From an uncultured Hormoscilla sp. (GTDB taxonomy: Bacteria; Cyanobacteriota; Cyanobacteriia; Cyanobacteriales; Desertifilaceae), in NCBI GenBank assembly GCA_963921275.4, contig OZ001293.3:3840001-3904000 (forward strand): 64,000 nucleotides of DNA. Reading direction: 5' to 3'. The position numbers and the translations under genes were made by a program. Numbering within the stretch: position 1 is the stretch's first letter; each line of letters begins with the position of its first letter. Of this stretch, positions 7,326-57,229 are shown piece by piece. The notes beneath the pieces are model-generated. The model worked only from the letters and a program-made list of their open reading frames with translations. It ran no database searches and was not told where the DNA came from.

Positions 7326-10300
7326 ATGAATCAAACAAAATCAACATCATTACCCAAAAATATGATTCTGGCTAATAAAGAAGAAATATCACTGCCTTTG
7401 ACAGAGGCCCAAAAACAACTCTGGATTTTAGCTCAACTAGATAAAGAGAGTTCAATTGCCTATAACCAATCGATAAATGTACAAATGCGCGGTCCACTGA
7501 GATTGGAGGCGATGAAGCGGGCGATAGAAAAAATTGTCGATCGGCACGAGGCTTTACGGACGAAAATTTTGCCTTCAGGCGATGGACAACAGGTTGGTCG
7601 GGCGGAGGAAATAGAGCTGCCAGTACTGGACTTTTCCAATGAAGAGAGTAGCAGGCTCCTTGAGGGAGCGCAGGATTGGTTTGAAAAGGAGAACCGAACG
7701 ATTTTTGATTTGAATGCAGGACCGCCTTGGCGCATGCAAGTCCTGAAGCTGGAAGAACAGCTTCATTGGCTGGTGTTTAGCGCTCATCATATAGGACTAG
7801 ATTTGCAATCGATGTTCTGGATTCTCCAGGAATTAGGAGTTCTGTATTCATCTGAGTGTCAGGAAAAACAGGTGACATTACAGGAACCAAAGCAATTTCA
7901 AGAATATATAAACTGGCAAGTAGGGCAAAGCCAGACTGGGGAAATGGCAGAGCATGAAGCCTACTGGTTGGATAAATTGGCAGGGGAACTCCCGGGATTA
8001 AACCTGCCGACAGACTGGAATCGCCCGGGGAATAGAGATTTTAAGATAAACAAGGAAACTGTTCGGCTAGATGATGATGTAAGTCACAAACTGGAAATCT
8101 TTAGCAGCCAAAGAGGTGGGCGGGTTGGAACGACTCTGCTGGCAGTATATATGACATTGCTGCATCGACTGACAGGACAGTCAGATATTATAGTAGGATT
8201 GCCGACTTCCGGACGGTACTTTGAAGGAAGCGAAGAAGTGGTTGGCTGCTGTGGAGATCTGTTGCCAATCAGAAGTTTGCTGGAGAGCAACCCCACATTT
8301 TCAGACTATCTCCGACAGATCGAGAAGGTATGGTTGGCAGCAGAGGCACATAAAAATTATCCCTTCGCGAGATTGTCTGAGGGACTGAATCGTCAAAATA
8401 ACTCTAGGAACTCGCCTCTGATAACAACATTGTTTAGCTGGGAAAGGCCAGTTAGCGAGCCGCAGATGTGGAAACTGGAAACAGCTTTATATCCTCAACC
8501 TCTCGATTTTAAGGATTATGACTTGTATGGTAAAATCATCGAGTCCAAAGAGAACCAGTTAGCATTGGAGGTAAGTTATAGCACGCAGTTGTTAGCAGCC
8601 TCAACGATTAAACGCTGGTTGGGACATTTTACAACTCTGCTAGAGGCAATATTAGAAAATCCCGATCGGAAGCTCTCGGAATTACCGTTGCTTACCAGGG
8701 AAGAATCCCAGCGGTTGTTAGTCGAATGGAATGACACGGAGTCGGATTATCCAGCGGATAAATGCGTTCATCAATTGTTTGAAGAACAGGTGCAGCTCCG
8801 GCCGGATGCCGTGGCAGTGGTGCTGGGAAACAAGCAACTGACTTATTCGGATTTAAATGACCGGAGCAATCAGCTGGCGCGTTACTTGGAAACTCTGGGT
8901 GTGGGACCAGAGGCGCTGGTGGGAGTTTGTGTAGAACGTTCTTTGGAAACGATCGTGGGGATGCTGGGAATTCTTAAAGCTGGGGGGGCTTATGTCCCCC
9001 TGGATCCCAGTTATCCTCAAGAACGTTTGGCATATATGTTGCATGATTCGGGGCTGAAGGTGCTTCTGACGCAGGATAAGTTTGTTAATTCATTGCCAGA
9101 ATATCATCACAAGCTGGTTTGTTTGGATGGAGATTGGGGAGTAATTGAGAAATACAGCAAGGAAAATAAAGAAACAGATGTAAAACCAAATAATCTGGCT
9201 TATGTAATATATACGTCAGGGTCTACAGGGAAACCAAAGGGTGTATTAAGTGCGCACCCGGGACTGTGCAATCTGGCATGGGCCTTCAAGAATATATTTA
9301 ATGTCGGACCAGAAGCTCGTCTTCTTCAGTTTGCTTCTTTAAGCTTTGATGCCTCAGTAGAAGAGATTTTTACGGCTGTCACATCGGGAGCGAGATTGGT
9401 TCTAGGAACAAAAGATAGTTTACTCTTAGGACATAATTTGCTACAGTTGTTGCGGGAACAGGGGGTTACTCACGCGACAATAGGACCGGCGGCTTTAGCA
9501 GTGTTGCCTCCAGAAAAATTGCCATGCTTAAATGTATTGATTGTGGCTGGAGAGGCGATATCTAGCGAGGTGGTCAGGAAATGGTCTTCGGGACGACAAT
9601 TTTTTAACGCTTACGGTCCTACTGAAGCGACTGTTTGTGCTACGGTAGCTGAGGTTGCCGATGCTAGCCAAAAGCCGCCGATCGGTCGCCCCATTCCTAA
9701 TGCTAAGGTTTACATCCTTGACGAACATCTGCAACCGGTACCGATCGGCGTGCCTGGGGAACTTCATATTGGTGGAGTTGGGTTATCTAGGGGCTATCTT
9801 AATCGTCCGGAGTTGACGGATAAAAAATTCATTCCTAACCCTTTTAGTGACGAGAAAGGATCGCGCCTCTACAAAACAGGAGACTTAGCTCGTTACCGAG
9901 AGGATGGTAATATCGAATTTATCGGCAGGATAGACTACCAAGTAAAAATTCGCGGTTACCGGATAGAACTGGGAGAAATTGAAGCATTGTTAAGCCGTAA
10001 CCCGGAAGTGCGGGAAGCGGTGGTGATTCAGAGGGAGGACCAACCGGGCGATCGGCGTCTAGTAGCTTATGTGGTCCCAGAAGATGATAACCGAGAGGTG
10101 GCGCGAGCAGATGATAATGAAACTGCTGTCGAACTCTGGCCTTCTGTGGCGGAATACTACGTATATGATGAATTGTTGTATTACGCCATGACCAACGATG
10201 AGCGCCGCAATCAGAGCTATCAAGTGGCTATTAACCAGTCGGTCAAGGATAAGGTGGTGGTCGAAATTGGCACGGGAAAAGATGCGATTTTAGCAAGGTT

Positions 10301-11687
10301 TTGTACGGAGGCGGGAGCCAAAAAAATCTATGCGATCGAGCGAGATGCCAAAACGGCTCAGCTGGCGGAAACTTGCGTTGCCGATCTGGGGTTGTCCGAG
10401 AAAATACAGGTTGTGGTTGGAGATGCAACTGAGTTAGTATTGCCGGAATTGGCAGATGTGTGCGTTTCAGAAATTGTCGGCTCGATCGGGGGTTCTGAAG
10501 GGGCAGCTGTGATTATCAATGATTCCCGGCGGTTGCTCAAACCAGGTGGGGGAATGATTCCCGAAAGAAGCGTGACGAAGATTGCTGCCGTGACTCTCCC
10601 CGATGAAATTTTGCAGCATCCCAAATTCACGAATATATCCGGGCATTATACCGATAAGATTTTCGAGCAAGTCGGATATAGCTTTGACTTGAGGGTCTGT
10701 ATTAAACGGTTCCCGAAGTCAAATGTGCTGTCAAACGTGCAAGTGTTTGAAGATTTAGACTTCACGCAACCAGTTGTTTTAGAAGAATCCCATGAAGTGG
10801 AGTTTGAGATCTTACAGTCGGGAAGGTTAGATGGCTTCCTGGTTTGGCTCAACCTGCATACGGTGAAGGGAGAGGAGATAGATATTCTGGAACACGAGCA
10901 TTGCTGGCTGCCAATTTACTTTCCCGTTTTCGAGCCGGGAATATCGGTGTCCAAAGGCGATCTCATACAGGGAATTTGCCAAAGAACCCTTTGCGACAAT
11001 CAGCTAAATCCTGATTATGCAATTAAAGGGGAATTGCTAAAAAGCGATGGAGAAGTGATAGAATTTGAACATATTTCTTATCACTACAAAAAAAGATTCA
11101 AGCAAAGTCCGTTTTATCAGCGGTTGTTTGCGGAGGGTGCGGGGACGGAAAACAATGGAGGTCAGGAGTCAAAAGCAAAATTTGTCAAAAGTATCAGAGA
11201 ATATATACGGAAGCATCTGCCTGAGTATATGGTGCCAGCGGCTTTGGTGGTAATGGCAAGTTTGCCTCTGACGCCTAATAATAAGGTAAACCGCAAGGCT
11301 CTCCCAGCTCCGGATACTACGGGGATATCTGATGCCGATTATGTCAAGCCTAATTCGGGGATGGAAAAAAATATTGCTGAGGTGTGGCAAGACGTGCTGA
11401 AGATCGAAAAAGTAGGAATTTATGACAACTTTTTTGAATTGGGCGGAAATTCTTTACTGCTAGTGAAGGTTTACAATCAATTGCTGCAAATAGATTCATT
11501 GTCACAAAAGCCGTCGATGGTAGAGTTGTTTAAGTATCCAACGATATCGACTTTGGCTAAGCAGATGAGCGGTAAAATTAAAGAGTCGGCGGCCAAGCCG
11601 GTTTATGGAGAGGCCCGTGGGGCAGCGCGGGAGGCGATGCAGCAACAACGTCAGCTCAGACAAAGACATCGTTCTAGGAAAAAATAG
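7326..11687 (+). CDS. NRPS module 1: C-A-(PRMT-like methyltransferase insert)-T; aromatic amino acid (Tyr/Phe-like)
   Basis: C motif HHIGLDL. A motifs YTSGSTGKPKG and YGPTE. MT insert VVEIGTGKDAIL lies between A8 and A9. T motif GGNSL. Manual code DAETIAAVCK (compare Phe DAWTIAAVCK, Tyr DASTIAAVCK). Confidence 0.93.
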   Translation: MNQTKSTSLPKNMILANKEEISLPLTEAQKQLWILAQLDKESSIAYNQSINVQMRGPLRLEAMKRAIEKIVDRHEALRTKILPSGDGQQVGRAEEIELPVLDFSNEESSRLLEGAQDWFEKENRTIFDLNAGPPWRMQVLKLEEQLHWLVFSAHHIGLDLQSMFWILQELGVLYSSECQEKQVTLQEPKQFQEYINWQVGQSQTGEMAEHEAYWLDKLAGELPGLNLPTDWNRPGNRDFKINKETVRLDDDVSHKLEIFSSQRGGRVGTTLLAVYMTLLHRLTGQSDIIVGLPTSGRYFEGSEEVVGCCGDLLPIRSLLESNPTFSDYLRQIEKVWLAAEAHKNYPFARLSEGLNRQNNSRNSPLITTLFSWERPVSEPQMWKLETALYPQPLDFKDYDLYGKIIESKENQLALEVSYSTQLLAASTIKRWLGHFTTLLEAILENPDRKLSELPLLTREESQRLLVEWNDTESDYPADKCVHQLFEEQVQLRPDAVAVVLGNKQLTYSDLNDRSNQLARYLETLGVGPEALVGVCVERSLETIVGMLGILKAGGAYVPLDPSYPQERLAYMLHDSGLKVLLTQDKFVNSLPEYHHKLVCLDGDWGVIEKYSKENKETDVKPNNLAYVIYTSGSTGKPKGVLSAHPGLCNLAWAFKNIFNVGPEARLLQFASLSFDASVEEIFTAVTSGARLVLGTKDSLLLGHNLLQLLREQGVTHATIGPAALAVLPPEKLPCLNVLIVAGEAISSEVVRKWSSGRQFFNAYGPTEATVCATVAEVADASQKPPIGRPIPNAKVYILDEHLQPVPIGVPGELHIGGVGLSRGYLNRPELTDKKFIPNPFSDEKGSRLYKTGDLARYREDGNIEFIGRIDYQVKIRGYRIELGEIEALLSRNPEVREAVVIQREDQPGDRRLVAYVVPEDDNREVARADDNETAVELWPSVAEYYVYDELLYYAMTNDERRNQSYQVAINQSVKDKVVVEIGTGKDAILARFCTEAGAKKIYAIERDAKTAQLAETCVADLGLSEKIQVVVGDATELVLPELADVCVSEIVGSIGGSEGAAVIINDSRRLLKPGGGMIPERSVTKIAAVTLPDEILQHPKFTNISGHYTDKIFEQVGYSFDLRVCIKRFPKSNVLSNVQVFEDLDFTQPVVLEESHEVEFEILQSGRLDGFLVWLNLHTVKGEEIDILEHEHCWLPIYFPVFEPGISVSKGDLIQGICQRTLCDNQLNPDYAIKGELLKSDGEVIEFEHISYHYKKRFKQSPFYQRLFAEGAGTENNGGQESKAKFVKSIREYIRKHLPEYMVPAALVVMASLPLTPNNKVNRKALPAPDTTGISDADYVKPNSGMEKNIAEVWQDVLKIEKVGIYDNFFELGGNSLLLVKVYNQLLQIDSLSQKPSMVELFKYPTISTLAKQMSGKIKESAAKPVYGEARGAAREAMQQQRQLRQRHRSRKK

Positions 11688-11924
11688 CACAGGTAGCCGG
11701 TATTGCCAGCAAGTAAAGTGTATTGCTGGCAAGTCAGTGGTCATGTTCTGGTAGAACCGGGAAAAATTGAGTAAAAATACGGATGGACAGGTTCGCAAGA
11801 GGATGAGAAGAATAGATGATGCAAACAGAGGATGAGCGGAGAATGAATAATCAGGAAATAGCGGCGATCGCCATGTCAGGTCATTGGCCAGGGGCCAAAA
11901 ATGTAGAAGAATAATTCCCGAACC
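11664..11924 (+). repeat. Decayed duplicate of the NRPS1/PKS junction and PKS start (intact copy at 14512-14770)
   Basis: Direct repeat including atgaataatcaggaaatagcggcgatcgccatg, which ends in an early stop in this copy. Confidence 0.9.
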
Positions 11925-12133
11925 CTTTGGCAGGCAGATCCAGGGAACGAATCCCACCCAGAAACCAGGTAATTTCGGCGAAACCTGGTTTCTTAATTCT
12001 GGCATTTAGAAAATATTCTTATATCATGTCTGGGGAATTACCCTCAATTAAGAAGCGACTCTCACCTTCTAGAGGATCTCGCGTTACCGTGCGATCGGGC
12101 TAAGTTGTCACCTCTTCTCTGTCATATCAATCG

Positions 12134-12253
12134 GGGTGCATCTCACTTTCGCACGGGCGAAGCATTCCGATAGGATATCTGTTAATTTATGTCAGAGATT
12201 GTCGCCGGAATGCTTCGCCCCTACAGGTATCTTTGTAAATATGAGATGCACCC
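12134..12253. mobile_element. MITE with 12-bp TIR, containing a REP-like inverted pair
   Basis: GGGTGCATCTCA...TGAGATGCACCC flanked by TATCAATCG/TATCAATAG (9-bp TSD, one mismatch). Internal GGGCGAAGCATTCCG...CGGAATGCTTCGCCC. Confidence 0.75.
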
Positions 12254-12711
12254 TATCAATAGACAAGGGAGTGTGGGGGAGGGGGGCGGCGCTTTCAGGG
12301 GTATGTTTTTAATATTTGGGTGAAAATGAGACTTGGTAGAGGGGGAAGACAGGTAGACTTTGAAGATTCTGATGACGAAATAATGAGCTTGCTCCCTCGA
12401 CTAGAACTTAGGGAACTGCCAAAAATAAATTATCCCAAAATTGGCGAAAATAGGCTTTTTTTTACTCGCTCTGGGGAACTGCTCCCGTGGCGCTAGTTTG
12501 GGGATTTTTTATGCGGATTTCCCTTATTAGTGCAAGAGTGGCTACCTAATTGGAAATTGCCTCGCCGCCAGAGTAATGCTTGTACTTTCTCCTTTGGGTG
12601 ATGACGGGATTTTAAGCTTTTCTGCCGCCGGAATTTATGATTCTTGGCTTGACCGATCGTCAGGCTTCCGGTTGAAGTGGGCATGACTCTAAGAAAAATA
12701 AATTCCCTTTG

Positions 12712-13955
12712 TAAGTGTCTGATGTGCGATCCGATTTCATTATCTGTAGGCTTTGTCAGAGGCGATCGCCTCGGGAGGTGGAACTGTTGCAGTGCCATAG
12801 AGGCCGAGCTCTGGTCGGGCTCTCCGGTAGAGATTGCTTCGTACCTCGCAACGCTACGCGGTTCGAGATTGCTTCGTACCTCGCAACACGGCTGCGCCTA
12901 CGCGGTTTGAACAAGTGAACTCAAAATCCACAGATCACATCATTATAGCATTGTTGATTAACATTTGCAATATAAAAATAATTTGGCACTTGCACTTACA
13001 TGAGAGGCTGGGAACATACTCTTTTCATGTGCTGGGCATCTCAGGACTGACGGTTGAAGGCCACGGCTATCACCGGTAGAAAGCAGGACAAAAACGATTG
13101 CCCGTAAAGATTTGTTACAGCCCGACAGTGTCGCAGAAATATGGCTTATGGTAGAAGTGGAAATCACATAAAGAGAAAATAGATTAGCCTTGTAAGTATG
13201 TCAGATGTGCGATCCTATTTCAGAAGGTGTAGGCTTTGAGGTGGGAGAGGCTCACAGGAGGTGGAACTGTTGGAGAGCAATAATGGCCGCGCCATCGAAG
13301 GTTTCACCGGTAGTTGAGGGCTCGGGAACATACTCATCTCCGGCATCACAACTTGGACAAAAGAAGGCCCCCACCGGTAGATAGCTGGCCAAAAACTGCT
13401 CGACAAGGGATATGTAAAGAATCGTTACAGATTGAAAGAGTCGCAGCAAATCGGGCTTATGGTAGAAGTAGTAATGACGCCAAAAAAATCTTGCCGTTGG
13501 AAGTATGTCAGATGTGTGATCCGATAGAGCAGGCGAGGTCTGTAGTTTGAGGCATAAAGTTATGGCTAAAGGAGTGGTGAATGAACTTGCTTATGAGGGG
13601 TTGACGCCGGTGCAGTCGGCAACGCCATCGCAGGTTTCACCGGTAGTTGAGGGCTCGGGAACATACTCATCTCCGGCATCACAACTGAGGATGGACAAAA
13701 GAAGGCCCCCACCGGGAGATAGCTGGCCAAAAACTGCTCGACAAGGGATATGTAAAGAATCGTTACAGATTGAAAGAGTCGCAGCAAATCGGGCTTATGG
13801 TAGAAGTGGTAATGACGCAAAAAAAATATCTTACCGTTGGAAGTATGTCAGATAGGATAGAGCAGGCGAGGTCTGTAGTTTGAGGCATAAAGTTATGGCT
13901 AAAGGAGTGGTGAATGAACTTGTTTATGAGGGGTTGACGCCGGTGCAGTCGGCCA
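12712..13955. repeat. Degenerate mosaic tandem repeats (about 300-480 bp units)
   Basis: Anchor aagt(at)gtc(a/t)gat recurs at about 12713, 13194, 13501 and 13841. Block 13290-13510 matches 13623-13850, and 13525-13620 matches 13857-13952. Confidence 0.8.
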
Positions 13956-14090
13956 GGCTAGATAACAGGTATCGGAGTTGTAATCAGCAAAGCCTGGGAA
14001 ATTGGTCAGAACAGCAGGCAAAAAGTTAGTTGTGGTAAGAGGATCCCGATCCTGTATGAATGGGAAAGGTGATACGGAGAAACTATAAGA

Positions 14091-14348
14091 ATGCTTCAAG
14101 ACTTGGATAAAACATTAGAAGAACTGCTTAAAAACGAATTACCACCTCCGGTGATATCCCCCCCGGATGGGAAGTCAGTCACGATTAGTTTTTCAACTCC
14201 TGACAAAGATTTTGCTACCAGAGTTGAGCTGCCAGCAATAGACCTGTTCCTCTATAACGTGCGGGAAAACATGGAATTGCGGACTGCCCCCTGGTCAGTG
14301 GAACGGTCCAAGGCAGAACCTGATATCGGGTGTAGAATCGATTTCTAG
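14091..14348 (+). pseudogene. N-terminal fragment of a DUF4255/Pvc16-type contractile injection system protein, fused to a duplicated PKS fragment
   Basis: MLQDLDKTLEELLKNELP...ISFSTPD...LPAIDLFLYNVRENMELR matches the Pvc16 N-terminal pattern (recognised from memory). From 14312 the DNA is a copy of PKS 14773-14983. Confidence 0.72.
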
Positions 14349-14699
14349 GTTTTCAGATGAGGAGTTGTTAGCTGAAGGTGTCAAGCCGGAATTGTTGAGT
14401 AACGATGATTACGTTAGAGCCGGGGGAGTGCTGTCAGACATTGATCTGTTTGATGCCAGTTTCTTGTGAGTCCTAGCGAAGCGAAGCTAATGGATCCCCA
14501 GCGATGTTCTTAGACATCGTTCTAGGAAAAAATAGCACAGGTAGCCGGTATTGCCAGCAAGTAAAGTGTATTGCTGGCAAGTCAGTGGTCATGTTCTGGT
14601 ATAACCGGGAAAAATTGAGTAAAAATACGGATGGAGAGAGTGGACAGGTTCGCAAGAGGATGAGAAGAATAGATGATGCAAACAGAGGATGAGCGGAGA

Positions 14700-17600
14700 A
14701 TGAATAATCAGGAAATAGCGGCGATCGCCATGTCATGTCGTTTGCCAGGGGCAAAAAATGTAGAAGAATATTGGCAGAACCTGATATCGGGTGTAGAATC
14801 GATTTCTAGGTTTTCAGATGAGGAGTTGTTAGCTGAAGGTGTCAAGCCGGAATTGTTGAGTAACGATGATTACGTTAGAGCCGGGGGAGTGCTGTCAGAC
14901 ATTGATCTGTTTGATGCCAGTTTCTTTGGCATGAGTCCTAGCGAAGCGAAGCTAATGGATCCCCAGCAGCGCATGTTCTTAGAATGTGCATGGGAGGCAA
15001 TAGAACAGGCGGGTTATAACCCAGACATATATGATGGTCTAATAGGTGTATATGCAGGGATAGGAATAAATACATATTTAATTAACAATATTTACCAAAA
15101 TCAGGAGATAATGAAGTTGGTGAATCTGCATCAATTGGTGACAGCCAATGATAAGGATTATTTGCCGACCAGAGTATCATACAAGCTGAACCTGAAGGGG
15201 CCAAGTATAAACGTGAATACGGCATGTTCAACTTCATTGGTAGCGGTTCACTTGGCTTGTCAAAGTTTGTTGAATGGTGAATGTGACATGGCTTTGGTAG
15301 GTGGAGTGTCAGCGAGAATTCCTCACAAAGTAGGTCACCTGTACGAAGAAGGAATGATATTATCACCAGATGGACATTGTCGAGCTTTTGATGCGGGTGC
15401 AAAAGGGACAGTAGGGGGAAATGGAGTAGGAATAGTGGTCCTGAAACGATTGTCAGATGCGATCGCGGAAGGAGACGCAATCCATGGGATAATCAAAGGT
15501 TCAGCTATTAATAATGATGGTTCGTTGAAAATCGGATATACTGCTCCTAGCATAGATGGTCAAGCGGCGGTGATTGCTGAAGCCCAAGCAGTAGCGGGGG
15601 TAGAACCAGAAACGATTAGTTATATAGAAGCACATGGGACGGGAACGGAATTGGGAGACCCCATTGAAATCGCAGCACTGAAGCAGGCTTTTGCAAAGAA
15701 GAAGGATAAGAAAAACTTCTGCGCGATCGGGTCAGTAAAAACAAATATCGGTCATACTGATGCGGCATCTGGGGTGGCTAGCTTAATTAAAACGGTGCTA
15801 GCGCTGAAGCACGAAGTTATCCCTCCGAGCTTGCATTTTAACAAGCCAAATCCTAAGATTGATTTTGCAAACAGTCCTTTTTATGTAAATGCCGAACTAT
15901 CGGAATGGAAAAGCAATGGGGTGCCCCGTCGTGCAGGAGTTAGCTCTTTTGGAATTGGCGGGACTAATGCTCACATAATATTAGAAGAAGCCCCGCCGGT
16001 AGAAGCATCAGGAGCATCCCGACAAGCGCAAATTATGGTAATGTCAGCGAAGACAAGCACGGCCCTAGATCGGATGAGCGAAAATCTCGCTGTCTATTTA
16101 GAGCAAAACCCAGAAGTTAAGATCGCCGACGTGGCATATACTCTGGGGGTGAGTCGCAAGGAATTTAACTACAGACGGATGCTGGTTTGTCGGCAGGGCG
16201 AGGAGGCGGCGCGGACCCTAAGAGCATTAGATGGACAGCAAGTTTTCACCAATAGGATCGAAGATCGAGAGCGACCGGTTGTATTTATGTTTTCCGGACA
16301 AGGGGCTCAGTATGTAAATATGGGCCTGGGGATATATAAAAGTGAATCGGTTTTTGCAGAGCAAGTAGACCGCTGTGCGGAATTACTTTGGCCAGAATTA
16401 GGACTGGATCTGCGCCAGCTCCTTTATCCGACTGCTGAAAAGGCGGAGGCGGCTGTTTCACAACTGCAAGAAACGAAAATAGCACAAATAGCGATATTTG
16501 TTATCGAGTATGCCTTGGTACAGCTATGGCGCGAGTGGGGAATAGAACCAGAAGCGGCGATCGGCCATAGTATAGGGGAATATGTGGCAGCATGTATAGC
16601 AGGAGTTTTCTCCTTAGAAGATGCCTTGTCTTTGCTGGTGGCGCGAGGCCAGTTGATGCAGTCAATGGCCAAGGGGGCGATGCTTTCCATTCCGCTGCCA
16701 AAAGCAGAAGTGCAAGGGAGATTGGGAACTGAACTATCATTAGCAACAATTAACAGTCCATCTCGTTGCGTAGTTTCGGGTCCAGATGCAGCAGTGGCGG
16801 CTTTGGAAAAACAACTAGCATCGGAAAATATTCAAAGTCGTCGCCTGCACACTTCCCATGCTTTCCATTCCCAAATGATGGACCCGATGTTAGCAGAATT
16901 TGCAGGGCGGGTAAAGCAAGTTACTCTCCATCCTCCGGAAATTCCCTACATATCTAACCTGACTGGCACCTGGATAAGGGTAACCCAGGCGACAGATCCC
17001 AACTATTGGGTACAGCATTTGCGTCAAACGGTGCTGTTTGCACCGGGTTTGGAAAATTTATTGTCGGACCCCGATCGAGTCTTGCTGGAAGTAGGTCCGG
17101 GACGAACCTTGAGTACCTTGGCGAAAAGACATCCCGATAAGTCTGCCTCCCAGTTGGTCCTCACCTCCCTGCGCCATCCTCAAGAAGAATTGGCAGATCT
17201 GGATTTTCTGCTCGCCACTTTGGGCAATTTATGGTTAGCTGGAGTTAAGGTGGACTGGTTGGGATTCTACAGCCAGCAGCGACGCCATCGCTTGCCCTTG
17301 CCTACCTATCCCTTCGAACGCCAGCGTTACTGGATTTCACCTCAAAAGCAGCTTGAAAAAGTTGTTGACAGTAAGACAGAGGCAGGAAAAAAGCAAGATA
17401 TTGCCGATTGGTTTTACATGCCGACTTGGAACCGGTCCCTACTGGGGGCTGGCAGGAAATTGCCCGATCGCACTCTCCTGTTTATTGATGAGTATGGTAT
17501 AGGTTCTGAACTGGCAAGTAAGCTGCGATCGCAAGGTAAAGAGGCGATCAGGGTGAAGATGGGGGAATCCTTTGCGGAACTGGGCGAGGACCTGTATAGT

Positions 17601-19610: not shown

Positions 19611-19713
19611 GTTAGGCGGGTTACGTGGAGCGTCTGCCAGTCAGGTGGAAGGTTACGTCGGGCGGGCGGATCGCCTGCCAGTCAGGTGGCGACAAGCAAG
19701 TTAAGGTGCAAAT

Positions 19714-21309: not shown

Positions 21310-21311
21310 CA

Positions 21312-22946: not shown

Positions 22947-22980
22947 AAACCCCGGGGGAAAAGCAGGAAGGAAAAGGGAG

Positions 22981-32453: not shown

Positions 32454-32490
32454 ATTGAGATGGTGTGAGAAGATTTGGAGAAAAATTATC

Positions 32491-34323: not shown

Positions 34324-34347
34324 AATAAGTAGGAAGGAACGGGTAAA

Positions 34348-34512: not shown

Positions 34513-34519
34513 GAAAATC

Positions 34520-35707: not shown

Positions 35708-35717
35708 TTTACAGATT

Positions 35718-42463: not shown

Positions 42464-42819
42464 TTCACCAGAGATATTAAAGTCCTCGATCGCTCAGAAA
42501 TGCGGTGACTGTGTCCATTGACAGGAAATGCACCTCATTTTTGCAAAAACACACTTGTTTGAAGGCTGGAACCCTTATTATATTCTTACCTGAGTTGCAG
42601 AAACCCGGTTTCTTATCTGTATGATTAGACAACTACTTTTGACCACACCCTCTTGATAATGACCTTAGAGGTTGCTATCATAGAGAAGTAAAGGCTGAGT
42701 AGGTGAGATGGGAGAAGTGATAACGGTGGGTGGCATAATAACCAGCCATGAATGATGGACAGAGAGACCCATAGAGTAACAGAATAAAGTTGAGAGAATT
42801 GAAAAAGGAGAGTACAATA

Positions 42820-45247: not shown

Positions 45248-45302
45248 GCAGAAACTGAAGTCATGGCTCTTTGGAATGGTTTGTCTTTACTTTTTTAGTA
45301 TA

Positions 45303-46321: not shown

Positions 46322-46385
46322 TAGTATAGAACCCGAAGAGCTTTTCTGTATGACTGGTGCTAAAAGCTACTTTCCAAACATCCTC

Positions 46386-49010: not shown

Positions 49011-50195
49011 ATGATACCATTAGAAGATCAGAAGATGCTTTTCATTATACCGACATTGACGATTGGTTTAGTTGTTGTTTCAGCAATAGCGCTGCTATAT
49101 CTTTCTTACCCTTACTTATATATCTCACTATTTTGGTTACTCTATTTGATTTTCTTAACTTTAATCAGTAACAAGTCTTGGAACAAAGCCATATGGTTTA
49201 ATTTAAGTTTTATTATTTTTATATTTGGCTTAATTGAGATTTATTCTACTTTGTCTCTGAACGGCTGGATAGAAGGCTTGAAATTTGAAGGTAGCTATAC
49301 ACGAGATTATTTTACTGCTGACGATATCCTTGGTTATGCACCCAATAAAGCAATAGCCGTAAATTCAAAACTATCTATAAGAGGAAAGCCAATTTATGAT
49401 GTTACTTATACAATAAACGATCGAGGATTGCGGGTTTCTCCACCAGGCGATCGGGATCGATGTATATTATTTTTTGGCGACTCTTTCACCTTTGGGCAGG
49501 GGCTAGAGGACAATGAGACTTTGCCTTATCTTGTCGGTGAATTGTCAAAAGCCCAAGTATATAATTTTGGTTTTCACGGCTATGGGCCACATCAAATGCT
49601 TGCCGCTATAGAACAAGGGATGTTAGACAAAATTGTCGATTGTCAGCCAAGTTTAATTATCTATGAAGCATTTATAGGTGATATTTACAGATCGGCTGGT
49701 CGTGCCCCTTGGGATAGACATGGCCCCAAATATGCGATCGCGGCAAATGGAGGTGTAAAATATCAGGGTCACTTTGACGACAACTTCACTAAGAGTAAAG
49801 CAATAGCATTAATCAAGGAACAAGTAGAAAAGTCTTATTTTTACAAAAAGTTTTTTAAGTATAAAGCTTTAATTGATGAAGAGGATATAAAATTATTTAT
49901 CGAAATTATTAATGCTTCCTATAATCAATTAAGAGAAAAATACCCCAATGCTGATTTTCAGGTATTGTTTTGGGATAATTATCCAGAAAACCAGTTATAT
50001 CAACAAGTGATAGCAGGTTTAAGAGCAAAAAGTTTTCAGCTAGATTTAATTAGTCAAATACTACCAAACTTTTGGGATAATCAATCAAGATACCAGATCC
50101 CTGACGAACAACACCCTAATCCCCTGGCCAATCAATATATTGCAGAATACGTGGTCTCCGAAATTATGAATATGTCAGTAGTCAGTAGTCAGTAG
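49011..50195 (+). CDS. Membrane-anchored SGNH/GDSL hydrolase-family protein
   Basis: Three hydrophobic N-terminal segments, FFGDSFTFG, NFGFHGYG, DEQHPN. Confidence 0.85.
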   Translation: MIPLEDQKMLFIIPTLTIGLVVVSAIALLYLSYPYLYISLFWLLYLIFLTLISNKSWNKAIWFNLSFIIFIFGLIEIYSTLSLNGWIEGLKFEGSYTRDYFTADDILGYAPNKAIAVNSKLSIRGKPIYDVTYTINDRGLRVSPPGDRDRCILFFGDSFTFGQGLEDNETLPYLVGELSKAQVYNFGFHGYGPHQMLAAIEQGMLDKIVDCQPSLIIYEAFIGDIYRSAGRAPWDRHGPKYAIAANGGVKYQGHFDDNFTKSKAIALIKEQVEKSYFYKKFFKYKALIDEEDIKLFIEIINASYNQLREKYPNADFQVLFWDNYPENQLYQQVIAGLRAKSFQLDLISQILPNFWDNQSRYQIPDEQHPNPLANQYIAEYVVSEIMNMSVVSSQ

Positions 50196-50985: not shown

Positions 50986-51016
50986 GCAGATATGACTGAG
51001 GAATTGAGGAGAAAGG

Positions 51017-54000
51017 ATGAATGATATTGAAGACATTTACGAATTAAGCCCTATGCAGCAGGGGATTCTGTTCCACAGTCTTTACGAACAGAGTGATGGC
51101 ATGTATTTCCATATGCTAGCTTGGACTTTGGAAGGCCCGTTGAATGTAGATGCTTTCAAGCAAGCGTGGCATCAAGTTGTGGCTAGACACGCGGTGTTGC
51201 GGACTTCTTTCCACTGGCAAGAGTTGGAAAAACCCCTACAGGTGGTTCATTCTACGATCGAGTTGCCTTGGCTAAATATATCCTGGCAGGGAAAGACTGA
51301 GTTAGAAGAGAAGCGATCTGCCTTTATAAAGGCAGATCGCAGCCAAGGTTTTGAACTGGATGAAGCCCCCTTGATGCGCTGTGCTTTGATAGAGTTAGGC
51401 TCCGATCGCTACGAATTTGTCTGGAGTCTGCATCATCTGTTGCTTGATGGTTGGAGTATGGCGATCGTCCTGAAGGAAGTGTTTGAGTTATATGAGGCGA
51501 TCGCAGTGGGGAAAGATTTATATTTACCGCCCCCGCTCCCCTTCCGAGAGTATATCACTTGGTTGCAAGAGCAAGACTTGTCCCAGGCGAAAGCATACTG
51601 GCAACAAACCCTCCAGGGCTTTAAGATGCCTACTGTCATGCCTGGCATTCAGGGGCCAAAAAATCATCAAACCCATTACCAGGAGCAACATTTTAATTTA
51701 GCCGCAAGTACTACCAAGGCGTTACAGTCTTTAGCTCGCGCAAATGGTTTGACATTAAGTACAATTTTACAGGGTGCCTGGGCCCTACTGCTAAGTTGCT
51801 ACAGTGGGGAGTCAGATGTTGTCTTTGGAGTTACGGTTTCCGGTCGCCCGCCTTCTTTATCGAGAGTAGAATCGATGGTGGGGGTGTCGATCAATACATT
51901 ACCAATGCGCGTGCAACTGCCTGATTTGTCGTTTCCGACAGCAGGGGAACTATGGCCTTGGTTGAGAAAGTTGCAGGCCCAGCAGGTAGAACAGCAACAA
52001 TACTCCTTTATGCCTCTGGTGGAAATTCAAACTCTGAGTGAAGTACCCCAAGGTATGTTTGAGAGTATTGTGATTTTTCAGAACTATCCGATAGATCCTG
52101 TCAGCACCAGGCAGGGAGACTTGCAAATAGGTCAAATTAAAGGGACTGGACATACTAATTATCCCCTGACAGTCATGGCCAGTCCAGGTGCGGAATTGTC
52201 AGTACGGATAAAGTATGATGGCACTCGCTTTCACCTCAAGACCATAAGCTCGATCGCCAGAGACTTACAATTGGTATTAGAGGCGATCGCGACTAATCGA
52301 GAGCCCCAAATTGCTTCATTAATCACCAAGTTGCATAAATTGGGCAAACCGCTTAAACTGCAACAGCTGGAAGTGGCGTTGATGTCTGCTCCTGAAGTAG
52401 AAGATTGTTACATATTAGAACGAGAAAACACCATAGTTGCTTATGTAGTATTATCATCTGCATTGACGGAGCCAGAAAAACTCAATAATCATTTGCAAGC
52501 TCAACTCTATACTTACCAAGCACCAGATGTATATGTAAAAATATCGGCTTTACCCCTGACAGATACAGGAGAAATTGACGAAGTGGCCCTGGGGCGAATA
52601 CCGGTCTTGGATGAGGAGTTGGCACAACGCTGGGAAAAACAACTGCAAGAACTGCCAGAAATTGAGCGCGTAGCGGTGGTCGTTCGACCTGAAACTAAGA
52701 GTTTACCACCCTTACATTTATCTGACTTACTACCCCAAGTAGGGTGGGCACCGCCCACCAACGGCACCGCCCACCAACAGGCGGTTTCCGGTGATGACAT
52801 CACGCCAGTCCCAGAAAGCCAAGTGGCGATCGCCAAGGCCCGATCGCGGGAAATGGCCATCAGTCACGGAGGACCGCTAGAATATCGACAAGATTGGCCG
52901 CGTACCCTTGCAGAACTATTGCCAGTGGCGGCCCTCAAAAGCAGTCAGAAGATCCTATACATACAGCGGGATGGTACGGAGTTATGGCAATCCTATGGGG
53001 ATTTACTTCAAAAGGCCCAAAGCATAAATGGGGGTTTGAAAGCACTAGGTCTCCAGCCCCAAGATAAGGTAATACTGCAACTTAAACATCCCCAAGATTT
53101 TATTCCGGCATTTTGGGGCTGCATTCTGGGAGGGTTTGTACCGGTACCCCTGGGTGTAGCCCCTACTTATAGCCAAGTCAATAATGCGGTGCAGAAATTG
53201 CAGAATGCCTGGCAGATGCTAGAAAAGCCGTTCGTCTTGGCAAGCGCAGAACTGGTGCAGGCGATCGCTTCTTTGTCAGAACTTCTGGGTTTAGAGAATT
53301 TGCAAGTAGAAAGCTGCGATCGCCTGGGAGAGTACGACCCAGAACCGAATTATCATCTGAGTCAGCCAGAGGATTTAGCAATATTACTTCTAACGTCTGG
53401 AAGTACGGGCATGCCAAAGGGAGTTATGCTGAGTCATCGGAATATCTTAAGTAGCGTTGCGGCCACCTCGGAAGTCAGCCAATTGACCCGAGAAGATATA
53501 TCACTCAATTGGCTTCCCCTAGACCATCCCGGGCCTCTGATTCGCTGCTGTATCCGCTGCGTATTCCTCGCTTGCCAACAAATACACGCACCCACAGATC
53601 TGGTTTTACAAGATCCGCTAATCTGGTTTGATTGGTTGGAACGCTATGGGGTGACGAGTACTTGGAGTCCTAATTTTGCCTTTACCCTCGTTAACGATCA
53701 AGCCGCTGAAATTAAACAGCGGAGGTGGAATTTGTCTGCTGTCAGGTCTTTGTTGAATACTGCCGAACCCATTGTGCCCCAAACTGCACAAAGATTTTGG
53801 GAATTATTTGCCGGGCATCAGTTAGCTGCCCGGGCCATGCATTCTTCTTGGGGCATGGCAGAAACTGCTTCCGGGGTGACTTTTTCCGATCAGTTTTTGC
53901 AGGTCAACCCGACCCAGACTTCTTTTGCCGAATTAGGACTTCCCATCCCCGGGGTTTCTTTGCGCATCGTTAATGGGGAAAATGAAGTGATAGAATGCGG

Positions 54001-57000
54001 GGCGATCGGCTATTTACAAGTCAAGGGGGAAACGGTCACGCGGGGTTATTATCACAACGAGGAACTCAATCGGGAAGTCTTTACTACAGATGGCTGGTTT
54101 GCTACAGGGGATATCGGATTTATACAGGAGGGACGCTTAACGATTACGGGACGGGAAAAAGATGTGATTATTATTAATGGAGTTAATTATTACAGTCACG
54201 AAATTGAAGCGGCGATCGAAAAACTGCCAGAGATTGAACTGTCATACACGGCAGCGGTATCTGTAGAAGGAGATAAGTTGGCGGTCTTTTTCTCGACTCC
54301 ATGCAAGGATAGCCAGTTGCGGAACAAATTAGCAGAGATTCAGCAGCAAGTGGTCAGTCAAATTGGCATTAAACCCGATTATTTACTTCCCGTACAGAAG
54401 ACAGTCATTCCCAAAACTTCCATTGGCAAAATTCAGCGATCGCAACTCAGTCAGGCTTTTGCAGCTGGGGAATTCAAGGAGATTCTCAAACAAGTAGATA
54501 TCCTGTTAGAAAATGCTAACACCCTTCCCGACTGGTTTTACCGCCAAGTATGGCAAGCAAAACAAGTGCGCCGATTGCAGGAATTGTCAGCAGGACTAAC
54601 ATTAATATTTGTCGATTCATTAGGCTTGGGGGATTATATCGGCGAGCGACTGCTAGAGGAAAAGCAAGAGATTATTAAAGTATCGGTAGGGTCGGAATTT
54701 GTTCAAGTAAGTGCCGATCGCTACAGGCTCGACCCCCAAAAAGCAGAACATTATCAACAGTTGCTAGAAACTATAGCAGCTGCAAAGATTTATCTGATTC
54801 TACATTTGTGGAATTACACCGAGGATCGGGGGAAAATTTCCAGTCTGGCAGAATTAGAAAAAGCTCAAAATACCGGAGTTTACAGTTTACTATTCCTCGT
54901 CCAAGCCTTGGCCAAGGTGCAAGGCGATCGAGATGAAGTCCAGTTGCTATGGATTTCCAGTCATAGCCAGTCCGTAGAAGCAACTGAGGAGATCGCATGG
55001 GAAAAATCCTCAGTTATGGGATTGCTGAAAACGGTACCTCAAGAAATGCCCATGTGGAACTGTCGTCATGTCGATTTAGCTGTCGATCTAGCTGTCGAGG
55101 GAGTGGAAGTAAACGGGGATAATATTCTGGCGGAGATGCAGGATCCAACGGGAGAACCAGAAGTAGCCTATCGCCACGGACAGCGTTTAGTTATCCGTCT
55201 GGAACGAGTCAAATGGTCGGGCAAATTAGGCCAAGCAATACCTTTTCAGAAAGGCGGTAGCTATCTGATTACTGGCGGACTGGGAGGCATAGGGGTAGAA
55301 ATTGCTAAATACCTGCTGGAACATTATCAAGCCAGGTTACTATTGGTGGGTAGAACCCCCCTACAGACAGAGAAACTAGCAGCTATAGAGCAATTACAGC
55401 AGCTGGGTGGGACTGTAATTTATGAAACAGTCGATATCTGCGATCGCCCGAGGATGTCAGCCATCATATCGGACTGGGGCGAGTTAGATGGGATCGTTCA
55501 CTTAGCAGGTGTAGCCCATGACAGTTTGCTAGTAGAAGAAATCCACTCAGGATTTGCCACCGCCTTGCAAGGGAAGGTGTATGGCACCTGGGTACTGCAC
55601 CAATTGATTAAAGATCGCCCCGATTGTCTTTTTATCAACTTCTCTTCTGTCAACGGCTTTTTTGGCGGGACAACAGTAGGCGCTTATGCTGCGGCCAACA
55701 GTTTCCTGGATGCTTTTTCTGACTATCAAAGAAACCACAGTCAGTTACATAGCTATTGCTTTGCTTGGAGTATGTGGGACGAAACTGGCATGAGTCGCGG
55801 CTATCAAATGAAAGAACTCAGTCACGCACGCGGTTACTATCCCATTGGTAAGCAGCAAGGAATTAAATCTTTTTTGGCCGGCATGAGTTGGGGTCCGACA
55901 AGGTTGGCCATCGGTTTAGATGGCAGCAAGGCCAATATACAGCGCTATCTACCTGCATGTGACGGCTTAGAAAAATTAACAGCCTATTTTACTGGCACAG
56001 TACCCGCAAGTCTGCCGCAACCACCATCCGATCGCTACGGCACTCCTACCCCCTGGGAGTTAACGCCAGTACCGGAAATGCCCCTTACCGATAGCGGTGA
56101 AATAGATTTGCACAAGCTAGCAGGAAAAATTACATCCCTTAAAACAGGCGATCGGGTAGGGCCCCGGAACGAGATCGAACTTGAAATTGCACAGATCTGG
56201 CAAGAAGTGCTGGCAATCGATCATATAGGCATTTATGATAACTTCTTCCAATTGGGAGGACATTCGCTGCGTGTACTCCAAGTCATCTATCGCTTGCAGA
56301 ACTTTTTTGCTGTAGACTTACCCTTGCAAAGCCTCTTTAATACTCCTACTATTGCCAGTTTAGCCGCAGCAATTGCACGGCAGCATCCCCAGCAAGCCAA
56401 CTCTAGCCTAGTTCCCATTCAGCCAAAGGGGAAGCGATCGCCCTTTTTCTGCGTCCATCCCGTGGGTGGTAATGTGCTGTGCTATGCCAGTCTAGCCCGC
56501 CATCTGGGAGAAGAACAGCCATTTTATGGACTGCAATCACTAGGTCTGAATGGAGAAGAAGAACCCCTGACCAGTCTGGAAGACATGGCAACCCATTATA
56601 TTCAGGCCATTCAGACTATGCAGCCCTCCGGTCCCTATTATATAGGCGGCTGGTCTTTAGGAGGAGCGATCGCTTTTGAAATGGCCCAACAGTTGTCAGC
56701 ATCAGGAGAAGAAATAGGGTTGCTAGCATTGCTGGACAGCTACACGCCTCAAGTAATCGCTCGGGTCAACGACCAACGTAAGGGCCTATTGTCGCAAATG
56801 TTAAATGTAGCGCTTGATGATGCCACCTTAGCTTCCTACTACTTCGCCCAAGACCTGGGTAGTCTTTTAGGAAAAGAGCTGCAAATATCAGTGGAGCAGC
56901 TACAGCAACTAGATCTAGATGCACAGTTGACATATATCTTGGAGCAGGCTAAGATAGAGAAAGTTATACCACCCGAGCTAGGACTAAGGCAAATTCGTCG

Positions 57001-57229
57001 CCTGTTCCAGGTATTCCAGGCCAACATCCAAGCGCGGCTTCACTATCGCCCCCAACCATATGCGGGTCGGATAGTCCTGTTTCTTGCTAGCGAACAAACG
57101 GTGGAGGACGATCGAGGTTGGGACAGTCTGGCAATAGGAGGGATAGAGAAACACTTGATTAATGGAGGACATTACCAGCTGATCGAAAGTCGGATTCTGG
57201 GAGAGAAACTCAAGGTTTATCTAGCCTAA
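51017..57229 (+). CDS. Terminal depsipeptide module: C(DCL-like)-pseudo-Asub-A(alpha-keto acid)-KR-T-TE
   Basis: HHLLLDGWS. A-subdomain remnant before the A core (LPLTDTGEID). LTSGSTGMPKG, and WLPLDHPG lacking the amino-binding Asp. KR motifs TGGLGGIG and YAAAN. T motif GGHSL. TE motif GWSLG. Confidence 0.9.
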   Translation: MNDIEDIYELSPMQQGILFHSLYEQSDGMYFHMLAWTLEGPLNVDAFKQAWHQVVARHAVLRTSFHWQELEKPLQVVHSTIELPWLNISWQGKTELEEKRSAFIKADRSQGFELDEAPLMRCALIELGSDRYEFVWSLHHLLLDGWSMAIVLKEVFELYEAIAVGKDLYLPPPLPFREYITWLQEQDLSQAKAYWQQTLQGFKMPTVMPGIQGPKNHQTHYQEQHFNLAASTTKALQSLARANGLTLSTILQGAWALLLSCYSGESDVVFGVTVSGRPPSLSRVESMVGVSINTLPMRVQLPDLSFPTAGELWPWLRKLQAQQVEQQQYSFMPLVEIQTLSEVPQGMFESIVIFQNYPIDPVSTRQGDLQIGQIKGTGHTNYPLTVMASPGAELSVRIKYDGTRFHLKTISSIARDLQLVLEAIATNREPQIASLITKLHKLGKPLKLQQLEVALMSAPEVEDCYILERENTIVAYVVLSSALTEPEKLNNHLQAQLYTYQAPDVYVKISALPLTDTGEIDEVALGRIPVLDEELAQRWEKQLQELPEIERVAVVVRPETKSLPPLHLSDLLPQVGWAPPTNGTAHQQAVSGDDITPVPESQVAIAKARSREMAISHGGPLEYRQDWPRTLAELLPVAALKSSQKILYIQRDGTELWQSYGDLLQKAQSINGGLKALGLQPQDKVILQLKHPQDFIPAFWGCILGGFVPVPLGVAPTYSQVNNAVQKLQNAWQMLEKPFVLASAELVQAIASLSELLGLENLQVESCDRLGEYDPEPNYHLSQPEDLAILLLTSGSTGMPKGVMLSHRNILSSVAATSEVSQLTREDISLNWLPLDHPGPLIRCCIRCVFLACQQIHAPTDLVLQDPLIWFDWLERYGVTSTWSPNFAFTLVNDQAAEIKQRRWNLSAVRSLLNTAEPIVPQTAQRFWELFAGHQLAARAMHSSWGMAETASGVTFSDQFLQVNPTQTSFAELGLPIPGVSLRIVNGENEVIECGAIGYLQVKGETVTRGYYHNEELNREVFTTDGWFATGDIGFIQEGRLTITGREKDVIIINGVNYYSHEIEAAIEKLPEIELSYTAAVSVEGDKLAVFFSTPCKDSQLRNKLAEIQQQVVSQIGIKPDYLLPVQKTVIPKTSIGKIQRSQLSQAFAAGEFKEILKQVDILLENANTLPDWFYRQVWQAKQVRRLQELSAGLTLIFVDSLGLGDYIGERLLEEKQEIIKVSVGSEFVQVSADRYRLDPQKAEHYQQLLETIAAAKIYLILHLWNYTEDRGKISSLAELEKAQNTGVYSLLFLVQALAKVQGDRDEVQLLWISSHSQSVEATEEIAWEKSSVMGLLKTVPQEMPMWNCRHVDLAVDLAVEGVEVNGDNILAEMQDPTGEPEVAYRHGQRLVIRLERVKWSGKLGQAIPFQKGGSYLITGGLGGIGVEIAKYLLEHYQARLLLVGRTPLQTEKLAAIEQLQQLGGTVIYETVDICDRPRMSAIISDWGELDGIVHLAGVAHDSLLVEEIHSGFATALQGKVYGTWVLHQLIKDRPDCLFINFSSVNGFFGGTTVGAYAAANSFLDAFSDYQRNHSQLHSYCFAWSMWDETGMSRGYQMKELSHARGYYPIGKQQGIKSFLAGMSWGPTRLAIGLDGSKANIQRYLPACDGLEKLTAYFTGTVPASLPQPPSDRYGTPTPWELTPVPEMPLTDSGEIDLHKLAGKITSLKTGDRVGPRNEIELEIAQIWQEVLAIDHIGIYDNFFQLGGHSLRVLQVIYRLQNFFAVDLPLQSLFNTPTIASLAAAIARQHPQQANSSLVPIQPKGKRSPFFCVHPVGGNVLCYASLARHLGEEQPFYGLQSLGLNGEEEPLTSLEDMATHYIQAIQTMQPSGPYYIGGWSLGGAIAFEMAQQLSASGEEIGLLALLDSYTPQVIARVNDQRKGLLSQMLNVALDDATLASYYFAQDLGSLLGKELQISVEQLQQLDLDAQLTYILEQAKIEKVIPPELGLRQIRRLFQVFQANIQARLHYRPQPYAGRIVLFLASEQTVEDDRGWDSLAIGGIEKHLINGGHYQLIESRILGEKLKVYLA

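Follow-up and report, generated by a model that had tools for sequence, protein, structure and literature searches.

A window of 64,000 nucleotides from an uncultured Hormoscilla sp. (assembly GCA_963921275.4, contig OZ001293.3, positions 3,840,001 to 3,904,000; below, genome G000 and contig C1) carries on its plus strand, from position 7326 to 57229 and beyond, a biosynthetic gene cluster. Judged from its sequence, the cluster is an intact, conserved hybrid nonribosomal peptide synthetase (NRPS)-polyketide synthase (PKS) assembly line under purifying selection. We put at about 0.58 the probability that its product is a five-unit depsipeptide, γ-amino acid-β-OH-D-His-L-Ile-D-Ile-small 2-hydroxy acid, which would then be exported and glycosylated. 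In what follows, the window is the whole stretch, and plain positions count from its first nucleotide.

The line comprises eight assembly-line genes and the gene of a CmlA/FrsH-type β-hydroxylase, all on the plus strand and free of internal stops. The nine core genes add up to about 29 kb of stop-free sequence, and every insertion lies between genes. Domain order was taken from Pfam, catalytic and docking motifs were read in aligned orthologues from five clusters, and A-domain codes were read by motif anchors on GrsA numbering. The catalytic motifs of the KS, AT, KR, DH, ER, T, TE and both E domains are intact, and complete C-A-T modules stand together with a KS-AT-ACP module, as expected of a hybrid NRPS-PKS depsipeptide line. 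Contigs from run X1, a possible source sample, showed 0 differences to the window over the stretches compared (6745-11693, 14938-24499 and 32000-40374), so the reading frames there are no assembly artefact. The core genes, with the evidence for each, are as follows.

7326..11687, plus strand: NRPS 1, C (HHIGLDL variant)-A (code DAETIAAVCK, Tyr-like) interrupted by a VatN-type O-methyltransferase-T (Pfam, motifs, tree)
14673..19610, plus strand: PKS KS-AT (malonyl-type HAFH)-KR-DH with intact catalytic motifs and no ACP (Pfam, motifs)
19714..21309, plus strand: stand-alone ER-ACP, second half of the split PKS module, with C-terminal REEIEI docking motif (Pfam, motifs)
21312..22946, plus strand: stand-alone TubC_N docking domain, catalytic C (HHIVFDG) and COM-donor-like tail (Pfam, motifs, tree)
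22981..24579, plus strand: CmlA/FrsH-family nonheme diiron β-hydroxylase (PF18456, PDB matches, ligands)
24672..29213, plus strand: NRPS, degenerate interface-like C (HNLIMDK)-A (His, DSALIAEVWK)-T-E (Pfam, motifs, published code)
29226..32453, plus strand: NRPS, C (after-E type)-A (Ile-type, DAFFLGVTFK)-T (Pfam, motifs)
35718..40463, plus strand: NRPS, C (LCL type)-A (Ile-like, DAFFLGLTFK)-T-E (Pfam, motifs, tree)
51017..57229, plus strand: terminal NRPS, C (after-E type)-pseudo-A-sub-keto-acid ligase (KAL; Pro/Arg clade)-KR-T-TE (Pfam, motifs, tree)

A contig scan with the hydroxylase returned 60 loci, six of them at 76-87% identity. These lie in a biofilm metagenome-assembled genome (MAG; G041), in Tolypothrix sp. 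VBCCA 56010 (G042) and in four Microcoleus strains (G043, G044, G045 and G432), which are kin and not independent of one another. All six genomes hold the pathway genes, mostly at 72-87% identity; a search of four further genomes of the source genus (93-97% complete) did not find the hydroxylase. When the window domains were compared with three orthologues, every scored domain gave a dN/dS of 0.04-0.36, so the conservation of the cluster is not a matter of chance. The one unscorable domain was the swapped A domain of G041, where a Thr-type A domain with an FkbM-type methyltransferase replaces the first Ile A domain (G041:C1:99752-103906).

The rest of the source genome gives reason to ask whether this copy is itself silent or in early decay. 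Of its 10 other NRPS/PKS loci, eight are fragmented or incomplete and two consist of a single module each. Within the operon, an intron, an insertion sequence (IS), a 2.86-kb insertion and tandem amplifications interrupt the run of genes, and one hydrolase is broken. Against decay stand the stop-free core and the strictly intergenic placement of the insertions. In addition, a second sponge-metagenome population, about 98% identical (run X4), carries the genes examined, including the carbamoyltransferase described below, and is free of the 2.86-kb insert and the upstream intron (it has no cover of 42790-45036, which is not evidence of absence there). Three further runs (X5, X6 and X7) gave short scattered pieces and were not used. 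We consider silence or decay quite improbable; as the only intact multi-module line found in G000, the cluster points to a function still under selection.

The order of the genes varies among the orthologous clusters. G041 has the gene order of the window, with the first NRPS directly between an unrelated gene and the PKS; in the other clusters, inversion or relocation has affected both the first NRPS and the PKS-ER-C block. The mobile parts are thus the first gene and the PKS-ER-C block, and in G044 and G432 also the terminal gene. All seven genomes retain the His-Ile-Ile order, and in G000, G041, G042 and G045 the terminal gene comes next to it within one run. Given this shuffling, the order of assembly has to be read from docking motifs and C-domain types, both of which are conserved. 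REEIEI, unchanged in all five aligned clusters, forms the C terminus of the ER-ACP protein, and the next gene opens with a TubC_N domain (PF18563, E = 2e-21), so that both partners of the pairing proposed in an earlier, sequence-only reading of this DNA are present. The same reading had linked three COM-like tails to three IYxLSPxQ starts in gene order. All six motifs are present, the tails at the C termini of the genes at 21312, 24672 and 35718 and the starts at the N termini of those at 24672, 29226 and 51017, but which tail pairs with which start is not decidable by the motifs alone.

We also built a tree of C domains, in which 186 of 264 extracted domains were retained and ordinary after-T domains were thinned. 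The C domains that follow both E domains form one clade with the C-like domain of the His module (support 1.0, 23 rows); the after-T C domains lie outside it. Of the claim that DCL-like C domains follow both E domains, the shared clade stands; the label DCL is one that we apply from sequence motifs, the tree having no reference labelled after-E.

The identity of residue 1 is the least firm part of the product model. The methyltransferase embedded in NRPS 1 is PRMT-like in a PDB search, sits at the A8-A9 position and is 72% identical to VatN, which places the domain among the type III O-Tyr interrupted A domains (family 2b); the VatN methyltransferase belongs to the type III O-Tyr class (PMC8341866). 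Among 120 proteins examined with this methyltransferase, the dominant codes, with one exception the three most frequent, were DASTIAAVC (29), DASTVAAVC (14) and DASTAAAVC (5), which make up 48 of the 120 together. The residue 1 code itself reads DAET in G000, DASI/DAST (Ser-239) in G041 and G043, and DAWT in G042, G044, G045 and G432, with a Trp-239 that we take to be a Phe-type code.

Two observations weigh against O-methyl-Tyr. Glu-239 occurs in 1 of 120 related proteins, the 98%-identical P0001, and is so rare that residue 1 may not be plain Tyr. The methyltransferase is the most conserved domain between the Phe-coded genes (93%, versus 90% for the A core). Its retention in the four Phe-coded genomes out of seven would fit a phenol O-methyltransferase poorly. 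O-Methyl-Tyr is our best guess from code and domain, held with real doubt. The proposal that a methylated aromatic residue is extended by malonate to a reduced γ-amino acid was upheld as regards the VatN-type methyltransferase and the fully reducing malonyl PKS and weakened by the variable residue 1 code. As a separate observation, one other cyanobacterial cluster (G247:C1:973318-979945, 54% identical) has the same PKS split, KS-AT-KR-DH followed by ER-ACP.

How the chain starts depends on the first C domain. In the tree it nests among post-aminotransferase C domains with a support of 1.0. Its motif reads HHIGLD[L/F/Y], while the 10 other classified members of the clade keep DG. All five aligned clusters retain the second His and the Asp. 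The dN/dS of this domain was 0.23-0.35, as compared to 0.26-0.34 for the noncatalytic interface domain and 0.13-0.25 for the catalytic C domains. Neither G000 nor G041 yielded a multidomain aminotransferase; the clusters read showed no FAAL, ACP or docking partner for the first C domain; and a metagenome scan with the domain returned no locus. A starter acting in trans was considered as a conserved partner and rejected: the aminotransferase-PKS genes of G042, G044 and G045 lie in separate, self-contained clusters, and G000 and G041 have none. A single-sequence fold of the domain (pLDDT 34) was not used. Most likely the first C domain is a relaxed relic of a lost β-amino-acyl starter system and adds no acyl group. 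The unit X that the sequence-only reading had placed upstream found no source in G000 or G041 and may be nothing.

Alternatively, the first C domain could be an active starter that attaches a fatty or short acyl group, drawn from primary metabolism, to the nitrogen of Tyr/Phe. The product would then be a lipodepsipeptide on which the TE closes a 13-membered ring at the His β-OH or acts by hydrolysis, and the serine hydrolases of the cluster could remove the acyl cap in a prodrug-like manner. Several facts speak for this and so against a relic: both lobes of the domain are under purifying selection at the dN/dS given above, the catalytic second His and Asp are retained, and HHxxxD[F/L] is common, being present in 29 of 264 C domains, so that the D[F/L] motif is no proof of inactivity. 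A free γ-aminoacyl thioester is, moreover, prone to lactam cyclization, which argues for an N-cap that would prevent off-loading as a lactam. Its grouping with DG-keeping post-aminotransferase domains, the want of any acyl-supplying partner in the clusters read and its faster evolution than the catalytic C domains make an active starter doubtful, and we retain the relic in the product model.

The middle of the chain is better defined. The His code DSALIAEVWK is invariant in 7 of 7 genomes and is listed both as His and as accepting β-OH in PMC12283262; the predicted His assignment is thus well supported. The best PDB matches of the adjoining hydroxylase are FrsH (8a90, E = 5e-120) and CmlA (4jo0, E = 3e-109). 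It combines CmlA_N (PF18456) with a metallo-β-lactamase fold, and its diiron ligands (HxHxDH, E and D), kept in 5 of 5 clusters, mark it as a member of the CmlA/FrsH family; the MECDG motif reads VQCDG in all five aligned orthologues. FrsH hydroxylates T-bound Leu (PMC7794379). The β-hydroxylation proposed from sequence alone was thereby supported, as were the D-His and D-Ile-like residues, by the E domains on the His and second Ile modules, and the two Ile-type modules. For the latter the codes are DAFFLGVTFK and DAFFLGLTFK, which we take to be Ile-type (residue 3 is Thr-type in G041). It counts against the Ile assignment that neither code was found in the main text of PMC12283262.

At the end of the line, the keto-acid domain has Pro at the 235-equivalent position in place of Asp235 and is followed by a KR with intact motifs and a T domain, as in keto-acid modules. 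Its best PDB matches are McyG and 6ulw/6ulx, and C-KAL-KR-T is the architecture of CrpD-M2 (PMC13643306). This terminal KAL-KR-T-TE module agrees with the α-hydroxy acid of the sequence-only reading. The pocket (Pro-235, a nearby Arg and TA for AG) defines a 44-row clade with a support of 100 and no named member among 122 rows; the keto acid is probably small and polar. Ligases of this Pro/Arg clade (P0244-P0257 and P0260-P0285) were also seen as KR-less starters before Gly-type modules and in stand-alone KAL-KR-T-TE proteins in Nostocales.

β-OH-His is a recognized metallophore ligand (PMC12971057), and among plasmids the nearest match to the His pocket belongs to a cluster with a TonB receptor next to it. 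A siderophore or metallophore with β-OH-His as the chelator, a hint contained in the sequence-only reading, had to be weighed. A search for TonB receptors (PF00593), which did not extend to FecCD or periplasmic binding families, found none in the vicinity of the cluster in any of five genomes; the nearest one in G000 is about 380 kb away, and the G041 assembly has none. The product would also offer a single chelating residue, and known siderophore His hydroxylases are Fe/α-ketoglutarate (α-KG) enzymes of the IBH_His type (PMC12971057), whereas the enzyme here is a CmlA-type diiron protein. We thus regard a metallophore as very improbable; a defensive or allelopathic metabolite that requires self-protection fits better. 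A candidate His-based metallophore cluster was noted elsewhere, on plasmid C of Trichormus variabilis (L122, NC_007412.1 1718-35266), where an NRPS cluster has two DSA..IAEVW His-type modules beside a TonB receptor.

Histidine supply is unusual in this genus. None of the five genomes of the genus (G000-G004) yielded hisB (PF00475), and G041 shows the same pattern; the gene was found in 9 of 9 other genomes of the same family and is missing in 2 other genomes of 41. Absence from the genus fits PMC6520454, section 9 of which names no cluster like the one in the window. G000 and its kin retain intact hisA/hisF and hisD, so true auxotrophy is not established. We rejected the idea of a histidine auxotroph spending host His on those grounds and because the biofilm MAG shows the same pattern. 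To go by gene content, a nonorthologous dehydratase replacing hisB is at least as likely as auxotrophy.

Between and beyond the core genes lie tailoring genes, serine hydrolases, repeats and insertions:

6117..6771, plus strand: group II intron-like insert without an open reading frame (ORF), upstream of and outside the pathway (starts GTGCG; multicopy in the genome; an X4 contig joins across it)
11810..14672, no strand assigned: recent 2.86-kb insertion between NRPS 1 and PKS with duplicated junctions (repeats D3/D5; skipped by X4; the two genes are adjacent in G041)
32491..34323, plus strand: carbamoyltransferase (NodU/CmcH type), a lineage-specific insert (PF02543/PF16861; kept in X4)
34520..35707, plus strand: membrane-anchored SGNH-like hydrolase/acyltransferase (GGS..GVND..DFCH motifs, one transmembrane helix; conserved in the cluster family)
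40314..42464, plus strand: nine 239-bp tandem copies of the 3' end of the gene at 35718 (repeat and consensus match)
42820..45036, plus strand: serine hydrolase of the β-lactamase family (SMSK/YNN/HGG) with N-terminal CBM5/12 at 42820-43000 (Pfam, motifs)
45300..46330, plus strand: high-copy IS element with DDE transposase (Pfam, copy number)
47096..48892, plus strand: second cluster-specific serine hydrolase (Pfam, subfamily search)
49011..50195, plus strand: second membrane-anchored SGNH/GDSL-like protein (sequence features)
57407..58942, plus strand: third serine hydrolase, broken by an in-frame stop (ORF, Pfam)
58996..63056, plus strand: two of three 2483-bp tandem units, each with a fourth serine hydrolase (repeat comparison)

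Past the window (C1:3905808-3912437) follow a secreted CxxCH protein, a GT2 glycosyltransferase, an LPG_synthase_TM flippase, a 577-aa membrane protein and an MFS exporter. The GT2, the flippase and the membrane protein occur in all orthologous clusters, the last in all seven cluster genomes. Of 401 sampled cyanobacteria the membrane protein matched 3, the very ones that head the list of ER-ACP matches, and it was not found in four cluster-less genomes of the source genus. The product may be a glycoside, since among the 401 the cassette occurs in precisely the 3 with the cluster. With nine predicted transmembrane segments and an Atlas similarity of 0.98-0.99 to ArnT/PMT_2 clusters, the membrane protein resembles a GT-C enzyme; it tells against this that it has no direct Pfam match and that the two of its 25 homologues that match PMT_2 both score below the cut-off. 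Lipid-linked glycosylation after export is the simplest reading of these genes, and a role in self-protection of the envelope fits them equally well.

In the latter case the GT2/flippase/GT-C cassette, the SGNH proteins and the carbamoyltransferase would modify the envelope of the producer, in an ArnT-like defense against a cationic peptide, and the depsipeptide would remain unglycosylated. The enzyme types, lipid-linked and acting on the periplasmic side, suit this. So do carbamoyltransferases 69-74% identical to the cluster copy, which lie outside the cluster in 5 of 5 genomes tested, some beside small and SGNH-like genes; the other copy of G000 is broken, and the cluster gene may simply replace it. 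Its counterweight is the distribution of the membrane protein, present in 7 of 7 cluster genomes, 0 of 4 cluster-less congeners and 0 of 398 other sampled cyanobacteria, a linkage that does not separate the two roles. We consider the envelope role a reasonable possibility, short of an even chance, and keep glycosylation of the product in the model.

The carbamoyltransferase was not found in the clusters of G041, G042, G044 or G045 or in the parts read of those of G043 and G432. O-Carbamoylation, which the sequence-only reading had considered possible, does not belong to what the cluster family conserves: it would be at most a lineage-specific decoration, or supplied in trans, or unrelated to the product. 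The SGNH-like protein at 34520 has orthologues at mostly 66-70% identity and no Pfam or NCBIfam match. Two further genes were seen in related clusters. A 530-aa protein with no Pfam, NCBIfam or PDB match is present in the Tolypothrix and Microcoleus clusters (L074:7250-8833), and G000 has a 73% identical gene elsewhere (G000:C1:638527-640179). A flavin-dependent oxidoreductase is inserted in two clusters, with an Na/H antiporter in Tolypothrix (L075:3194-6292) and at G041:C1:121983-123725, and was not found in G000.

The serine hydrolases have multiplied in the source genome to six copies, one of them broken and three in the 2483-bp tandem units. The subfamily occurs in 3 of 401 sampled cyanobacteria, the same three as the cluster. 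The units (window 58996-64000, continuing to 3906423 on G000:C1) show 1 and 0 differences, and the first two carry a truncated copy of the CxxCH-protein gene; the third unit, with the CxxCH, GT2, flippase, ArnT/PMT-like and MFS genes after it, lies at G000:C1:3903941-3912437. A hydrolase paralogue of G041 has an N terminus similar to that of the CBM5/12-bearing copy.

The 239-bp array sits upstream of the first hydrolase copy. Eight of its nine copies contain the sigma-70-like site TTGACA-17-TATCAT and one has TATCGT (a predicted promoter, matching 10-11 of 12 consensus positions). Further sites were noted at 46414 and 46656, and the single orthologous site in G041 is weaker, CTAGAC-17-TACGAT. 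Promoter-like sites number 41 versus 22.9 in shuffles, an excess that stems largely from the repeat itself and is not independent evidence; read depth at the array gives no copy number. Tolypothrix has independently duplicated the same gene end ahead of its hydrolase copies. The hydrolase amplification looks like dosage selection, as for a self-protection gene, and promoter amplification ahead of the hydrolases is possible. Upstream of the cluster, between it and two-component genes, positions 5330-6011 hold a 261-bp direct repeat pair and intron-related fragments; Rfam gave 0 matches within the window.

The proposed route would begin with NRPS 1 loading Tyr and O-methylating it, the first C domain adding no acyl group. 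The split PKS (KS-AT-KR-DH plus ER-ACP) would add malonate and reduce it fully to give 4-amino-5-(4-methoxyphenyl)pentanoyl, which REEIEI would pass to the stand-alone C domain for condensation with His on the interface-A-T-E protein, where the diiron enzyme would β-hydroxylate the His. L-Ile and then D-Ile would be added, after which a small, probably polar keto acid would be reduced and ester-linked. Release by the TE would, most simply, form a 17-membered ring on the free γ-amine. The MFS protein may export the product and the GT2/flippase/GT-C cassette attach a sugar, most obviously to the His β-OH. The carbamoyltransferase gained in this lineage may cap a hydroxyl, and the amplified cytoplasmic serine hydrolases might serve in self-protection or processing.

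A bolder version, which we offer as speculation that is rather unlikely to hold, sees an undescribed glyco-depsipeptide class: a β-OH-D-His macrocycle that is exported, glycosylated outside the cytoplasm by lipid-linked GT-C chemistry and carbamoylated in the sponge lineage. It would be the sole intact multi-module line of a decaying, symbiont-like genome in which selection has multiplied the self-protection hydrolases and their promoter. If true, the sugar-carbamoyl-hydroxyhistidine motif known from bleomycin would have been reached here independently. Even the plainer model makes a predicted new scaffold, with defined fragment masses, a testable target in named free-living strains (Tolypothrix sp. 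VBCCA 56010 and the four Microcoleus) as well as in a sponge-associated lineage. It also brings within reach of experiment the substrate of a widespread Pro/Arg keto-acid ligase, the way in which a CmlA-type hydroxylase would cooperate with an interface domain on His, and the possible tailoring of a nonribosomal peptide by a GT-C cassette. The natural swaps (Ile to Thr plus methyltransferase; Tyr, Phe and Glu-239 codes) form a ready comparison set.

Microcoleus and Tolypothrix are much-studied genera, and the product could be a cyanobacterial or sponge compound that has been described before, its genes being unpublished or in MIBiG. We think this rather unlikely. We know of no compound with this residue set, and the best 120 matches of three protein searches included no full-length named orthologue. 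A literature search, beyond whose reach most subscription chemistry journals lay, returned no description of the cluster or its product; none of bioRxiv 10.64898/2026.07.24.740629, PMC13638107, PMC3777966 and PMC7794379 matches the cluster in its accessible parts. The pathway is likely, and not proven, to be an orphan.

Among known systems, cryptophycin shares an O-methyl-Tyr module, the role of CrpC. Cryptophycin CrpC/CrpD and dolastatin 15 Dol15D (PMC13643306) share the terminal C-(partial A)-KAL-KR-T, the ester-linked hydroxy acid and TE release. Unlike cryptophycin, the window encodes no long polyketide unit: Tyr and one PKS module yield a γ-amino acid, the codes are His, Ile and Ile, and the KAL belongs to another clade (Pro-235, Arg pocket). 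The multi-module unit A PKS and the β-Ala and leucic acid modules are missing. Vatiamide VatN and didemnin DidJ (PMC8341866) have the same methyltransferase family at A8-A9; here there is a single methyltransferase and no N-methyltransferase, in the first module, with the code DAETIAAVCK and a Phe-type code in four orthologues. FR900359 FrsH and chloramphenicol CmlA (PMC7794379) share family, ligand motifs and a T-bound amino acid substrate, the last predicted here. The hydroxylase of the window differs in being paired with a stand-alone C domain, an interface-like domain and a His A domain, and in VQCDG for MECDG.

Myxoglucamides (PMC13638107) are likewise glycosylated NRPS/PKS products with a γ-amino acid, an interface domain and β-hydroxylation. 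They are Glu-derived and myxobacterial, use an α-KG oxygenase and have a residue set unrelated to that of the window. Bleomycin (BlmX His module, PMC3777966) resembles the cluster in its hybrid NRPS-PKS character, β-OH-His-type code, PKS-made γ-amino acid, glycosylation-type genes and carbamoyltransferase. The window has the β-OH-His code, but no Cy/Ox bithiazole and no Asn-derived pyrimidoblamic part (by Pfam and codes, the eight assembly-line genes contain neither a Cys or Asn module nor a Cy domain); its γ-amino acid precedes His, the opposite order, and it adds E domains, a hydroxy-acid terminus and a lipid-linked GT-C-type cassette. Bleomycin bears both sugar and carbamoyl on its β-OH-His. 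Tubulysin (TubC/TubF) and hapalosin share TubC-type docking and the route from an aromatic amino acid plus malonyl to a γ-amino acid, with the TubF domain order KS-AT-KR-DH-ER; in the window the γ-amino acid is the first unit of the chain and not the last, and the break in the PKS module falls between DH and ER. Every part of the pathway has a precedent, and what sets it apart is how the parts are combined, together with the split PKS, a KAL clade that has no named member and the GT-C cassette.

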